This document shows positions 7,891-11,819 of a DNA stretch of 42,026 nucleotides, one piece after another; position 1 is the first letter of the stretch; the number at the start of each line of letters is the position of its first letter. The position numbers and the translations under genes are program-made. The stretch spans positions 1 through 42,026 of the IMG/VR virus record IMGVR_UViG_2734482779_000005; one strand, 5' to 3'. A model generated the notes under the pieces. It made no database searches. It was not told the DNA's origin and was given only the letters and a program-made list of their open reading frames with translations. The stretch is from a virus. Taxonomy: Duplodnaviria > Heunggongvirae > Uroviricota > Caudoviricetes.

Positions 7891-8565
7891 TTAGGCCTTT
7901 ATTTTGTATCTTCTTGGTTTTCCTGAGAAAATTACTGTACCAATTATAGAGCAATTACCGTTGATCTTAATGTAAGGTTCAGGCCAGTTTGGGTTTAATG
8001 CTTTGAGGTAACGCTGTGTTCCATCTTCTATCAACCGCTTAAAGGTGGTTTCGCCTGTATCGTGCATCAATGCAATAACGTCGTCACCGTGGCAGGCAGG
8101 GACTTCAGGATCTACAAAAATCATGTCTCCCGGGCGGTACTCATCAATCATTGAATCACCAATCACCCGCAAGATATAAGTCATTTCGCCACAGGGTACA
8201 GGGCAGGGATAAGTTTCTGCTGTGCTCAAATCAACCTCAGAATAGCCAACTTCTTTCCATGCTCCGGCCTGTACCCATGATATGACAGGGACTAACGTTA
8301 TTTGTTTGTTAGTAATTGAAACATCAGGTTTTTTTGTGATGTTTGTTGTCTGGTGTTCTTGATCAAGCCATCCGACAGGCAGGTCGAAACATTTTTCGAT
8401 GTGCCGTGCCATGCTGTCACCGATATTTTTAGTAGCACCATCTCCCATAAACCTGCTGGTCTGGGTTGGCTCGCGATCAATCATGGTGGCAAAGGAAGAA
8501 TTCCCGCCAACACCATCTCTCAGTTTTCTGGCGTTAGACCGCCGGATGTCATGGACTGTTTTCAT
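7891..8565 (-). CDS. cI: CI-like prophage repressor (HTH N-domain plus S24/LexA-like autoproteolytic C-domain)
   Basis: 224 aa; C-terminal region (…LRVIGDSMIDEY…GDMIFVDPEVPACHGDDVIAL…) has the Ser/Lys peptidase S24 architecture; divergent from a Cro-like gene across an operator-bearing intergenic region. Confidence 0.8.
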   Translation of the reverse strand: MKTVHDIRRSNARKLRDGVGGNSSFATMIDREPTQTSRFMGDGATKNIGDSMARHIEKCFDLPVGWLDQEHQTTNITKKPDVSITNKQITLVPVISWVQAGAWKEVGYSEVDLSTAETYPCPVPCGEMTYILRVIGDSMIDEYRPGDMIFVDPEVPACHGDDVIALMHDTGETTFKRLIEDGTQRYLKALNPNWPEPYIKINGNCSIIGTVIFSGKPRRYKIKA

Positions 8566-9451: not shown

Positions 9452-10284
9452 ACAGTTTAACGGCAAATAACCGTTTGTCGCAACAGCTGGTGGTCAGCGA
9501 CGCTGACCACCTGTTGTTACGGCATGAATGCAGATTACCAAATCACCTGGCTGTAAGTAACCACAGAGAACTTTACCTGACTGTGGGGGGCGAGTTGTGC
9601 AGGAACTTAACCGCTGGTTTCGTGACGGAAGAGGACTTTATGTTCATGTTATTCGTTGGGAGCCAGAAACACAGCGCGTTATCTATCTTCGCAAAGACTA
9701 CCCGCATGAGTGCTTTAGTCCTTTGTGGAAATTCAGGCGTGATTTTGTTGAGTGTGAAGGACCACCAGCACATTGATTCTGCCATTCCGGGACGTTACAC
9801 TGTTCAGGCACCTTATAAAGCGGGTGCCGGGATTGGCGTCCTGGAAATGTTATCGGCGATATATGACGCGCCAGCGTCTTTTTTATCGTCTGCGTCTGTG
9901 CACACCCAAATTATGGTGGGCTGGACGGGGGCACCGAAAGGTGCGCCGGTTTCCGATAACGCCGGTTACGCCAACCCCGTTCAGTTCACCACCAGCGAAA
10001 TTGGCGTTTCCGGTGGTGAAGGTAATTCACTGTTATCGGAGGCTGCCATCATGGCTACTGTCCCAGCCCTCACTCGTCTGAATGATGAAGACTTACATAA
10101 ACTCAGTTATGTAACAACTGCACTACGTGCTCTGCGCAAGGTAACTCTTTCGGATCCGCAGGCGCATCAGGTTTTGGTAGAAACCCTTCTTAACTTGCAG
10201 GCTGAACGTATTCGTCTGGCGGATAAGGCTAATTTTCATATTCACCGTCTCCTGAATATCAGCGGAGGGCATCGTCATGCTTAA
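9448..10284 (+). CDS. Hypothetical ORF (278 aa), coding status uncertain
   Basis: Longest ORF in the interval, but the N-terminal half is low-complexity and an alternative frame (GTG 9597 to tga 9776) gives a more protein-like 59-aa product; see findings. Confidence 0.25.
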   Translation: MNSLTANNRLSQQLVVSDADHLLLRHECRLPNHLAVSNHRELYLTVGGELCRNLTAGFVTEEDFMFMLFVGSQKHSALSIFAKTTRMSALVLCGNSGVILLSVKDHQHIDSAIPGRYTVQAPYKAGAGIGVLEMLSAIYDAPASFLSSASVHTQIMVGWTGAPKGAPVSDNAGYANPVQFTTSEIGVSGGEGNSLLSEAAIMATVPALTRLNDEDLHKLSYVTTALRALRKVTLSDPQAHQVLVETLLNLQAERIRLADKANFHIHRLLNISGGHRHA

Positions 10285-10513
10285 TCCGTTGATCCTCAAC
10301 ATTTACCGTTTATTTCAGCGTAAAAAAACATCAATTCCTACAGTTGGGCAGTGGTACACCACGCCTGCAGGGCATGTTCTACGTGTTAGCCTGGTTGACC
10401 GTGAATGTCAGAAGGTGATTTGTGAACCGCTGGGCCGTAATTACCGCGTCAGTATGCCGCTTATAGCCTTTCGCTCCGGAAAAAACATGAAGCATCTCGG
10501 AGGTGCAGCATGA
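10277..10513 (+). CDS. Small hypothetical protein (78 aa)
   Basis: ORF track; overlaps the neighbours by 4 to 8 nt in operon fashion. Confidence 0.35.
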   Translation: MLNPLILNIYRLFQRKKTSIPTVGQWYTTPAGHVLRVSLVDRECQKVICEPLGRNYRVSMPLIAFRSGKNMKHLGGAA

Positions 10514-11328
10514 GTATGGAGCTGATGGTTAAAGCGATGAAAATTCGAGTGGGTAATCCATTGCGAAAACTGGTTCTGATCAAGCTGGCTGATAATGCCA
10601 GCGATCAGGGTGAGTGCTGGCCCAGCTACCAGCATATTGCTGACCAGTGCGAGATTAGCAAACGTTCTGTGATGAATCATATTGCGGCCCTTTGTGAGTC
10701 CGGGCTGGTAAAAAAAGTCACCCGGAAAGGTGAAAAAGGTAACTCAAGTAATATCTATCTCCTTCATCTGGATGGTGCAGGAGATTCACCAGGGGGTAGT
10801 GCAAATAATTCACTATCTGGTGCAGCAAATTCACCAGGTAGTGCAGGAGTTGCACCAGGGGGTAGTGCAGGAGATTCACCCAGAACCAGTCACTCTTTTG
10901 AACCAGTCAAAGAACCAGTCAATGAACCAATAGCTGTTGGTGCATCTGCTGATGAGTCTGTGCGAGTTCGTTCAAACCGACCGGAATACTCTCCGGAGTT
11001 TGAGCAGGCATGGCTGGCATATCCCAAACGTGCTGGTGGCAATTCAAAATCTGCAGCCTTCAAAGCCTGGAAAGCCCGTTTGAATGAGGGGGTAAACCCC
11101 GAAACCATGCTGGAAGGTGTGAAACGCTATGCGGGCTGGGTATCTGCGATGGGTAACAGCGGCACACAATTTGTGAAACAGGCTGTCACGTTCTTTGGTC
11201 CGGATCGTCATTTCGAAGAATCCTGGGAAGTTCCTGCGGTATCTGCAGCCAGACGTGAGGACCCGTACTTCAAAGCCAGTTACGACAACGTGGACTACAG
11301 CCAGATCCCGGCAGGATTCAGGGGGTGA
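10510..11328 (+). CDS. Replication initiator (lambda O-like) with N-terminal HTH and internal iteron-encoded linker
   Basis: N-terminal …LRKLVLIKLADNASDQGECWPSYQHIADQCEISKRSVMNHIAALCESGLV… HTH; origin-like direct repeats lie within the gene, as in lambda O. Confidence 0.6.
   Translation: MSMELMVKAMKIRVGNPLRKLVLIKLADNASDQGECWPSYQHIADQCEISKRSVMNHIAALCESGLVKKVTRKGEKGNSSNIYLLHLDGAGDSPGGSANNSLSGAANSPGSAGVAPGGSAGDSPRTSHSFEPVKEPVNEPIAVGASADESVRVRSNRPEYSPEFEQAWLAYPKRAGGNSKSAAFKAWKARLNEGVNPETMLEGVKRYAGWVSAMGNSGTQFVKQAVTFFGPDRHFEESWEVPAVSAARREDPYFKASYDNVDYSQIPAGFRG
10775..10930. repeat. Candidate replication origin: five iterons (gtgcaggagattcacc family, spaced about 22 bp) followed by three copies of gaaccagtca
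   Basis: Direct repeats at 10775-10790, 10797-10812 (variant), 10820-10835, 10841-10856 and 10865-10880; gaaccagtca-type repeats at about 10884-10925. Confidence 0.6.
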
Positions 11329-11819
11329 TCATGAGTCTTTTGAATGAAGTTCAGAAATTCATTGAAGCCCATCCGGGGTGTACTTCCGGAGACATTGCGG
11401 ATGCTTTTGCAGGTTACTCACGGCAGCGCGTTCTGCAGTCAGCAAGCAAGTTACGTCAGAGTGGGCGTGTGGCTCACCGTTGTGAAGGAGATACACGCAG
11501 ACATTTCCCACGCCTGACTGAGAGAGCGCAGGAGCCGGAACCACAACCAGTTCGTGAAACCAAACCTGTGCGCAATTTCTATGTCGGCACTAACGATCCC
11601 CGGGTGATTTTGTGCCTGACCCGCCAGGCTGAAGAGCTGGAGTCCAGGGGGTTATACCGTCGTGCTGCAACGGTGTGGATGGCGGCATTCCGAGAAAGCC
11701 ACTCCCAGCCAGAACGAAACAATTTTCTGGCACGTCGTGAGCGGTGCTTACGGAAAAGCAGCAAGCGCGCTGCATCGGGTGAAGAGTGGTATCTGTCAGG
11801 GAATTACGTGGGGGCTTAA
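11325..11819 (+). CDS. Hypothetical regulator-like protein (possible winged-helix N-terminus; C-terminus reminiscent of the PerC family)
   Basis: 164 aa; …GLYRRAATVWMAAFRESHSQPERNNFLARRERCLRK… resembles the PerC-type motif as I recall; unverified. Confidence 0.3.
   Translation: MIMSLLNEVQKFIEAHPGCTSGDIADAFAGYSRQRVLQSASKLRQSGRVAHRCEGDTRRHFPRLTERAQEPEPQPVRETKPVRNFYVGTNDPRVILCLTRQAEELESRGLYRRAATVWMAAFRESHSQPERNNFLARRERCLRKSSKRAASGEEWYLSGNYVGA

Follow-up and report, generated by a model that had tools for sequence, protein, structure and literature searches.

The DNA analysed here, hereafter the window, is a 42,026-nt stretch of a Caudoviricetes genome (IMG/VR record IMGVR_UViG_2734482779_000005, positions 1 to 42,026). 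Our analysis concerns a predicted replication initiator gene at 10510-11328, together with an array of five short repeats (iterons) and an adjoining repeat-bearing element, the junction, both of which lie within its coding sequence and form a candidate replication origin. The initiator gene belongs to the early right operon and is preceded, in order, by a cI-like open reading frame (ORF), a small ORF at the cro position, a cII-like gene and an Ash-family gene. The cI-like repressor ORF occupies 7891-8565 on the minus strand, and both the cI-like and cro assignments were made from position and sequence reading alone. The features of the initiator gene are given below, with iteron registers counted from the junction, whose position 0 is 10882, and model confidence given as the predicted local distance difference test (pLDDT).

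10510..11328, plus strand: initiator gene, 272 amino acids, encoding an N-terminal winged helix, a disordered linker and a helical C-terminal domain (ORF, Pfam, PHROG, AlphaFold2)
10510..10773, plus strand: region coding for the winged-helix domain (residues 1-88), pLDDT ~80-90, in which residues 51-63 form the recognition helix and 67-85 the wing
10775..10789, strand not applicable: iteron 1, GTGCAGGAGATTCAC, from sequence reading, repeat search and pattern scan; register -107
10799..10813, strand not applicable: iteron 2, GTGCAAATAATTCAC, from the pattern scan; register -83; the most diverged of the five units
10820..10834, strand not applicable: iteron 3, GTGCAGCAAATTCAC; register -62, among the three positions common to nearly all relatives
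10841..10855, free of mismatches to the pattern on either strand: iteron 4, GTGCAGGAGTTGCAC, fully palindromic over 5+5 bases (GTGCA / TGCAC); register -41
10865..10879, strand not applicable: iteron 5, GTGCAGGAGATTCAC, abutting the junction element; register -17
10880..10916, strand not applicable: near-invariant junction element, CCAGAACCAGTCACTCTTTTGAACCAGTCAAAGAACC, 37 bp; proposed origin core and demonstrated mosaic breakpoint
10883, 10900 and 10912 (span 10883..10921), plus strand: three exact copies of the 10-mer GAACCAGTCA, with a partial fourth, GAACC, at 10924
10984..11325, plus strand: C-terminal domain (residues ~159-272), with helices at 162-229 and moderate pLDDT; interchangeable between relatives

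The five units, each 15 bp long, share the consensus GTGCA-N5-TKCAC and start 24, 21, 21 and 24 bp apart, a spacing of roughly two turns of the helix. The pattern GTGCANNNNNTKCAC was built from these units, which makes its count partly circular but not the clustering of its matches; on the plus strand it recovers exactly the five units across all 42,026 bases and nothing elsewhere, and on the minus strand it additionally matches unit 4 as a palindrome, against an expectation of 0.34 matches per window on both strands from dinucleotide shuffles. With one mismatch allowed, the motif occurs 19 times against 7.7 +/- 3.6 expected, and ten of the 19 are the array itself. The extra sites (9597, 10016, 11482 and others) were rejected as further iterons, their count being at chance level; that at 10016-10030, in the Ash-family gene ~750 bp upstream of the array, is a near-palindromic GTGAAGGTAATTCAC with one mismatch on either strand, likewise a chance-level occurrence. 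Tandem Repeats Finder (TRF) delimits a tract at 10775-10880 with a period of 21-24 and 4.8 copies, and another at 10900-10929 with a period of 12 and 2.5 copies. Exact copies of GAACCAGTCA number three in the whole window, all within the 10883-10921 region.

The array lies in frame within ORF 10510-11328 and encodes the peptide GAGDSPGGSANNSLSGAANSPGSAGVAPGGSAGDSP, which by unit reads GAGDSP/GGSANNSLS/GAANSP/GSAGVAP/GGSAGDSP, followed by RTSHSFEPVKEPVNEP. An earlier note, made from this sequence without database searches, had described five direct repeats followed by three copies of the 10-mer, placed in the linker-coding part of the gene and encoding a repetitive Gly/Ser/Ala/Pro peptide. Its coordinates, spacing and copy numbers agree with our sequence reading, repeat search and TRF; the 10-mers proved exact at 10883, 10900 and 10912; and the linker assignment is upheld by the in-frame translation and by the disorder that AlphaFold2 predicts for residues 93-157. 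An overlapping 67-aa ORF in the +2 frame (10730-10933) reads the iterons as VQEIH repeats and is a by-product of the repeats. A frame of this +2 type is the frame of the real protein for one unit ('VVQEIHQG') in many relatives.

The initiator matches PHROG 270, 'replication initiation protein', at E=3.9e-89, and Pfam assigns residues 17-67 to HTH_36 (PF13730) above threshold (E=1.8e-11, 44.1 bits against a cut-off of 25), with a weak DnaD_N match beside it. AlphaFold2 builds the N-domain from the helices H3-11, H17-28, H40-47 and H51-63 and the strands E67-73 and E79-85, and models residues 93-157, which span the repeats and the junction, as disordered, with pLDDT below 50. Using this model, Foldseek retrieved generic winged helices at E ~0.01-0.07, including DnaD-N and a RepA_N Rep-DNA complex, but nothing for the C-domain, which also matched no Pfam or NCBIfam family. 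NCBIfam likewise offered no family for the N-domain, giving weak regulator matches at most, and a sequence search of the PDB with the initiator returned nothing meaningful. The description of this protein as 'O-like' holds for its position and function and fails for its sequence: Phage_rep_O, the lambda O protein family (Pfam PF04492), is absent from the Pfam result, and BLASTP against lambda O found no sequence similarity, the best hit (E 0.021) being a spurious 22-residue stretch.

For comparative analysis, a whole-protein locus search recovered 80 near-identical loci that were uninformative on divergence, and it was superseded by two other scans. Scan 1 used the junction DNA pattern, with all nine wobble positions free, against viral contigs and recovered 80 phage loci, whereas scan 2 used N-terminal peptide patterns alone against one genome per species, thereby avoiding ascertainment through the junction, and recovered 80 loci from Pseudomonas, Shewanella, Aeromonas, Marinomonas, Xenorhabdus, Providencia, Erwinia, Aliivibrio and others. 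Among the scan 1 loci, the downstream context takes 24 forms and the linker 52, with no fewer than 12 classes of repeat and 8 of C-domain. Six divergent phage genes, from phages of Vibrio, Klebsiella and Salmonella and from Stx phage 24B, illustrate this anatomy: they have a common N-terminal domain and unrelated C-terminal domains, the linker of each carries a different short repeat, and all share an identical stretch encoded by CCAGAACCAGTCACTCTTTTGAACCAGTCA..GAACC.

Unit statistics were compiled from 104 related loci of gamma-proteobacteria and their phages. At least three units are present in 103 of these loci, 318 of the 349 intervals measure 21, 22, 23 or 24 bp, and the register of the units from the junction is fixed at about -86/-83, -62, -41 and -17, independently of unit sequence. 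At this register the units are dyad-symmetric, with a mean of 4.44 complementary pairs out of 7 against 1.2-2.2 at offsets of 1-8 bases on either side; at least five of the seven pairs are complementary in 57% of units, and perfect palindromes in the family include GTGTAAAAATTACAC, GTGCAGGAGCTGCAC, GGGCAGGAGCTGCCC, GTGACAAAATGTCAC and TGCCATCTGATGGCA. In 48 loci, one unit falls in another codon phase (spacings 23+22) and is translated as VVQEIHQG rather than GAGDSP; locus L093 shows this phase shift with iterons of the window's type. Across the five units of the window itself, the invariant bases are retained while the encoded residues differ (GGT/AGT, GAT/AAT/GTT and TCA/GCA).

Unit sequence also follows the recognition helix. 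The helix S[KR]RSV[MI]xH pairs with units of the form GTG[CA]A-N5-T[GT]CAC, SKSAVRxH with TGCC-N7-GCA, DRSTVR[RK]H with TAGGC..AGCA, and SRSTVKxH with GGGCAG-N3-CTGCCC, and iteron distance correlates with protein distance at a Spearman coefficient of 0.56 for residues 47-72 against 0.20 for residues 1-46. Because the palindromes, the phase changes and the helix covariation are predicted by no peptide-level account, the units are to be regarded as DNA elements and not as peptide repeats. On these comparisons, the repeats are conserved as DNA, not as protein, and are most likely binding sites that mark the replication origin of the prophage.

The junction follows the last iteron at a distance that is fixed at 2 bp. 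Across 35 non-redundant loci, its columns -2 to +27 and +30 to +34 show 86-100% identity; an identical 26-mer is found in 71 of the 80 phage loci of scan 1, despite the free wobble positions, and 69 of the 80 scan 2 loci match with no more than four mismatches in 28. In a set of 68 loci found through the N-terminal peptide alone, from hosts of 37 to 62% GC, the junction diverges from the consensus by 6.3% (3.1% at third positions), compared with 20.3% (41.3% at third positions) for the N-terminal block, in which third-position changes account for 1,296 of 1,912. The 70 junction substitutions are distributed over codon positions 1, 2 and 3 as 30, 25 and 15, and 63 of them alter the amino acid (RTSHSF to RISHSS, RISNSL or HSPEP). 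As conservation is highest at the wobble positions and the majority of substitutions are non-synonymous, the junction is, on the evidence of these alignments, conserved as a DNA element rather than as a peptide.

The pair of bases separating GTCA from GAACC is free to vary, giving K, N, I or T at that residue, while the bases flanking them are fixed. In the window, the first copy of GAACCAGTCA is read as R-T-S-H and the others as E-P-V; in Shewanella variants with a shorter spacer, the first copy is also read as E-P-V. By the same comparison, the GAACCAGTCA copies are not specific to this phage and form part of a DNA element that is nearly invariant across iteron classes and hosts. The aligned GC profile of the 35 loci (-400 to +380) reaches its minimum, 0.36-0.42, at the junction, right after the GC-rich last iteron. 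A structured RNA element was considered and rejected, as an Rfam scan gave nothing beyond a chance microRNA match at E=0.07, and single-strand folding of the element (z-score -1.0) was no better than that of shuffles. Several variant junctions could reveal the essential features of the element: in L248, L254, L266, L267 and L269 (Shewanella, Parashewanella) the spacer between two 10-mers is 4 nt shorter, and in L283 and L287 (Aliivibrio) the first 10-mer is apparently duplicated, judging from the encoded peptide RTSHRTSQLEPV.

The initiator gene occupies the slot of lambda O, upstream of helicase or loader genes in its relatives. The genes immediately downstream of the relatives' initiators encode IstB/DnaC-like ATPases, DnaB-like proteins, lambda P (PF06992, E=1.8e-58) or Toprim-helicase (primase-helicase) fusions, and the C-domain, which we propose recruits the helicase, changes together with this partner. 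Four relatives that carry the window's own C-domain (L135, L232, L242 and L252) have an adjoining DnaC-like gene, and two other C-domain classes gave sub-threshold DnaT-like Pfam matches. In the window, this slot is taken by a gene that serves here as context and is not part of the origin:

11325..11819, plus strand: PerC-like gene (Pfam PerC, E=7.7e-9), in the helicase/loader slot of the relatives

The replication module of this phage therefore appears to be 'initiator-only', relying on the host for loading factors.

Sequence comparison thus establishes constraint at the level of DNA as well as geometry, covariation and synteny. In a layout that mirrors ori-lambda, these lead us to consider it likely that 10775-10928 is the cis-acting replication origin of a temperate phage, located within its own initiator gene in the stretch that codes for the linker. 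The core of this origin is probably the junction. The earlier note had suggested a lambda-type candidate origin with a different iteron sequence, and this suggestion gains support from the dyads, the 21-24 bp spacing, the register in 103 of 104 loci, the helix covariation, the phase changes and the O slot. It had also raised the absence of the repeats from close homologues as a point that would count against an origin; among the 120 closest homologues listed, nearly all keep at least two units, the exceptions being P0040, with a single unit on a 1.2-kb contig, and P0039, in which the junction is absent.

For the initiation process itself, we infer binding, duplex opening and helicase recruitment. 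Dimers of the winged-helix domain (residues 1-88), which are implied by the dyad symmetry of the sites, would bind the five iterons through the recognition helix 51-63 and assemble into a nucleoprotein complex resembling the lambda O-some; the helix covariation and the winged-helix fold lend such binding indirect support. The resulting stress may open the duplex in the adjoining, relatively AT-rich GAACCAGTCA-repeat element (10880-10928); alternatively, the helicase may enter there. The C-terminal domain would then bring in the replicative helicase, in this case the host DnaB-DnaC, as the phage encodes no loader or helicase, and in relatives a phage-encoded DnaC-like, lambda-P-like, DnaB-like or primase-helicase partner from the adjoining gene. 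Transcription from the cro-side early promoter would pass through the site, as at ori-lambda. The invariant element is in addition the site at which an 'N-domain plus iterons' module recombines onto different 'C-domain plus partner' modules.

Several observations weigh against this interpretation. Iteron 2 is diverged and may bind weakly, and the covariation of helix and iteron may in part reflect the physical linkage of adjacent DNA. The loci of scan 1 were ascertained by a DNA pattern, a bias that is removed only in the N-terminal-peptide set. The putative unwinding element is moderately AT-rich (58-64% AT), the lambda tract being much richer, and no DnaA box lies within 5 kb. Searches of the whole window with tblastn, using DnaC-like, DnaB-like, P-like and primase-helicase queries, found no helicase or loader homologue, and with neither in the window, helicase recruitment by the initiator is purely inferential. 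Finally, in the searchable literature we found no experiment on binding, unwinding or origin activity for this initiator family.

The junction itself is a demonstrated mosaic breakpoint. From junction position 0 (10882) onward, through the PerC, Dam, LexA-like and RusA genes, two metagenomic contigs, L288 (429-1238) and L289 (78-860), match the window at 98-100% identity, whereas upstream they are unrelated to it and carry other N-domains and iterons; because the identity begins at the first base of the junction, the recombination breakpoint must lie within ~20 bp of it. One could therefore argue that the 37-bp element is kept purely as a joint for homologous recombination, with no role in initiation and with unwinding taking place elsewhere, a view to which the two contigs lend weight, as do the iteron classes (12 or more) and C-domains (8 or more) joined at this point and the length of the element, 37 bp being close to the minimum for efficient homologous recombination. 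Such a joint would nevertheless leave unexplained the purifying selection on every base across hosts of 37 to 62% GC, the fixed 2-bp gap to the last iteron, and the internal 10-mer repeats that are kept despite a change of spacer, and we consider this account unlikely. The two roles of the junction, in recombination and in initiation, are in any case compatible.

Another possibility is that the units are true winged-helix binding sites serving autoregulation, copy-number control (handcuffing) or a transcriptional roadblock, with the origin elsewhere. Iteron-binding initiators such as plasmid Rep proteins commonly autoregulate as well. RepM has been described as autoregulating, and the lack of a strongly AT-rich tract or DnaA box beside the array would also fit a regulatory function. 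Yet the array lies inside the gene rather than at its promoter, no sigma-70-like promoter was found in or near it, nor any sense-strand promoter or terminator within it, and the window contains no second cluster of the motif; its constant pairing with a conserved element and its lambda-like position suit an origin instead, which makes a purely regulatory array decidedly improbable. It is very unlikely that the protein is a transcription factor whose repeats are operators and whose 'replication protein' labels are propagated annotation. The sole curated domain is indeed the generic HTH_36, the NCBIfam matches are weak regulator ones and we found no experimental paper on the family, but the gene in relatives directly precedes a DnaC-like, DnaB-like, lambda-P-like or primase-helicase gene, with a C-domain that changes with the partner, it holds the cro-cII-O position of the early right operon, and the window offers no other initiator candidate. 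Least credible of all is a low-complexity Gly/Ser/Ala/Pro linker produced by slippage and selected for flexibility alone, in DNA with no cis function: the segment is predicted to be disordered and its unit number grows and shrinks among close relatives as in slippage-prone linkers, but a peptide-only explanation is contradicted by the codon-phase, dyad and synonymous-site tests, given units that are palindromic at a fixed register, that are kept as DNA across different codon phases in 48 loci, that hold their bases while residues vary, and that co-vary with the recognition helix.

Returning to the origin reading, we advance a more speculative extension of it, to which we give somewhat less than an even chance: that CCAGAACCAGTCACTCTTTTGAACCAGTCA-NN-GAACC is a universal origin core, independent of iteron class, acting as an unwinding, single-strand-binding or helicase-entry site and at the same time as a homologous-recombination joint. 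With the same reserve, recognition of the core might fall to residues 1-46 of the initiator, which are invariant, or to a host factor that gamma-proteobacteria share, and winged helix plus iteron modules might be shuffled at the element with C-domain plus partner gene modules. We would place this shuffling, equally tentatively, among phages of Escherichia, Salmonella, Klebsiella, Vibrio, Shewanella, Aeromonas and Pseudomonas.

The initiator has 5,418 protein homologues at E<1e-5, and near-full-length copies of the gene occur in 897 of 5,426 complete E. coli genomes. Nearly identical genes are present in SfV (orf39), ST64B (sb42), cdtI, mEp460 and many Stx2 phages, and the Eru6 representative Stx2a_WGPS2 (AP012537) carries the same gene at 99% DNA identity. 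Near-identical genes differ in their number of units, from 2 to 9. Within the close homologues P0001-P0043, products of 250 aa have 2 units and those of 294 and 302 aa have 8-9; some repeat GSAGVAP five times over, and a 12-bp GAACCAGTCAAA unit is present in 2 to 4 copies. P0039 and P0040 are perhaps defective genes or assembly collapses.

Remnants and decayed copies were also encountered. In the K-12 CPS-53 prophage (L290; NC_000913 2472387-2473500), yfdO consists of a C-terminal remnant of lambda-O type joined to the final ~20 codons of the initiator family and to the same PerC-like yfdN module; upstream of it lies another dyad-symmetric repeat array, CGTCAAAATCTGACG-like and of ~5 copies, which looks like a decayed lambda-type origin. 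Given such yfdO-type remnants, partial matches are numerous among the 2,718 found in E. coli genomes. In L218 (Pseudomonas bharatica) and L249 (Erwinia tracheiphila), the initiator is frameshifted to 133 and 118 aa, with the alternative-frame end ...HPEPVTLLNQ; iterons and junction DNA are retained in both, which probably represent prophages in decay. A 70% blastn match to the repeat zone (query 71-230) in a hypothetical gene of Thermus phage Riverbug (H59; PQ109080.1 23004-23155) may be due to Gly/Ala-coding DNA of low complexity or mark a distant analogue.

That an origin can lie within an initiator gene is textbook knowledge. Workers on lambdoid phages routinely point to repeats inside initiator genes, and our literature search, which did not extend to the SfV and ST64B genome papers or the Weigel and Seitz review, found no account of an HTH_36-family origin, a fixed register, phase-shifted units or an invariant junction; the motif strings retrieved unrelated primers only. 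What we describe is, as far as sequence can tell, a layout like that of phage lambda inside an unrelated and very widespread initiator gene. The replication origin of the non-lambdoid 'Eru' Stx phages has not been described so far, and knowledge of the origin and its specificity determinants would permit replication-based typing and the construction of phage-derived replicons, and would help to predict incompatibility or cross-activation between co-resident prophages. The family further provides a natural series of matched recognition-helix/iteron pairs in fixed geometry, useful for studying the evolution of winged-helix specificity. The junction could prove the more interesting part, as a concrete case, open to testing, in which one sequence may link a cis-acting function with the modular recombination of phage mosaicism; if the universal-core proposal is true, one short DNA element would explain both origin firing and the mosaic evolution of replication modules.

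Among known systems, the gene itself is part of the Eru6-type replication region of non-lambdoid Stx phages, where an HTH_36 protein is encoded close to cI (PMC8951638). A term search of that paper found no mention of iterons, repeats or an origin in the Eru6 gene, and the Eru papers in general describe the HTH_36 protein and mention neither repeats nor an origin. The pHW126/pIGMS31 plasmids, with a conserved region and four iterons, were set aside as an analogy from a different family. The array also bears comparison with the iteron theta plasmids. In these (pPS10 RepA, F RepE, R6K pi, RK2 TrfA), a winged-helix Rep acts on direct repeats ~22 bp apart and of variable number, next to an unwinding element with short direct repeats that Rep can bind as single strands. 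A plasmid Rep contains a pair of winged-helix domains and acts as a monomer on asymmetric iterons, at origins that lie outside rep and usually contain DnaA boxes. The window shares with them the ~22-bp-spaced repeats, the winged-helix initiator, the adjoining short direct repeats and the variable unit number, but differs from the Rep_3 / RepA origins in its single winged helix, its dyad-symmetric in-gene units and its lack of a DnaA box. In the Gram-positive phage SPP1 (oriL in gene 38) and the lactococcal phages TP901-1 and Tuc2009 (rep), the initiator binds repeats within its own gene, as proposed here, although the protein families and hosts are unrelated to those of the window; we know of no shared conserved junction element in these origins.

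In ori-lambda and its counterparts in P22 gene 18, phage L and Stx phages 933W and P27, the initiator ORF contains the origin at the linker that separates an N-terminal domain for origin binding from a C-terminal domain for partner binding, a layout that the proposed origin of the window would share. Unlike lambda O, the window's protein belongs to HTH_36 and not Phage_rep_O and has no detectable sequence similarity to it; its iteron core is 15 bp against 18-19 bp; the ~80% AT tract of lambda is replaced by the near-invariant GAACCAGTCA-repeat element, at 58-64% AT and common to all specificity classes; and lambda has P as a partner, whereas this phage has no P-like one. Lambda O contains four iterons with internal dyads at nucleotides 349-433 of the gene, spaced 20, 24 and 23, with the unwinding tract behind them, and the array of the window occupies nucleotides 266-370 of its gene. 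Common to the window and the whole ori-lambda group are 4-6 dyad-symmetric iterons at 20-24 bp spacing, with the lowest-GC stretch on their 3' side, in a gene located after cro and cII and before the helicase-loader slot, and an iteron sequence that differs between phages of different initiator specificity. The window thus carries the array that characterises a lambda-type in-gene origin, namely at least four dyad-symmetric direct repeats between the two domains of the initiator.

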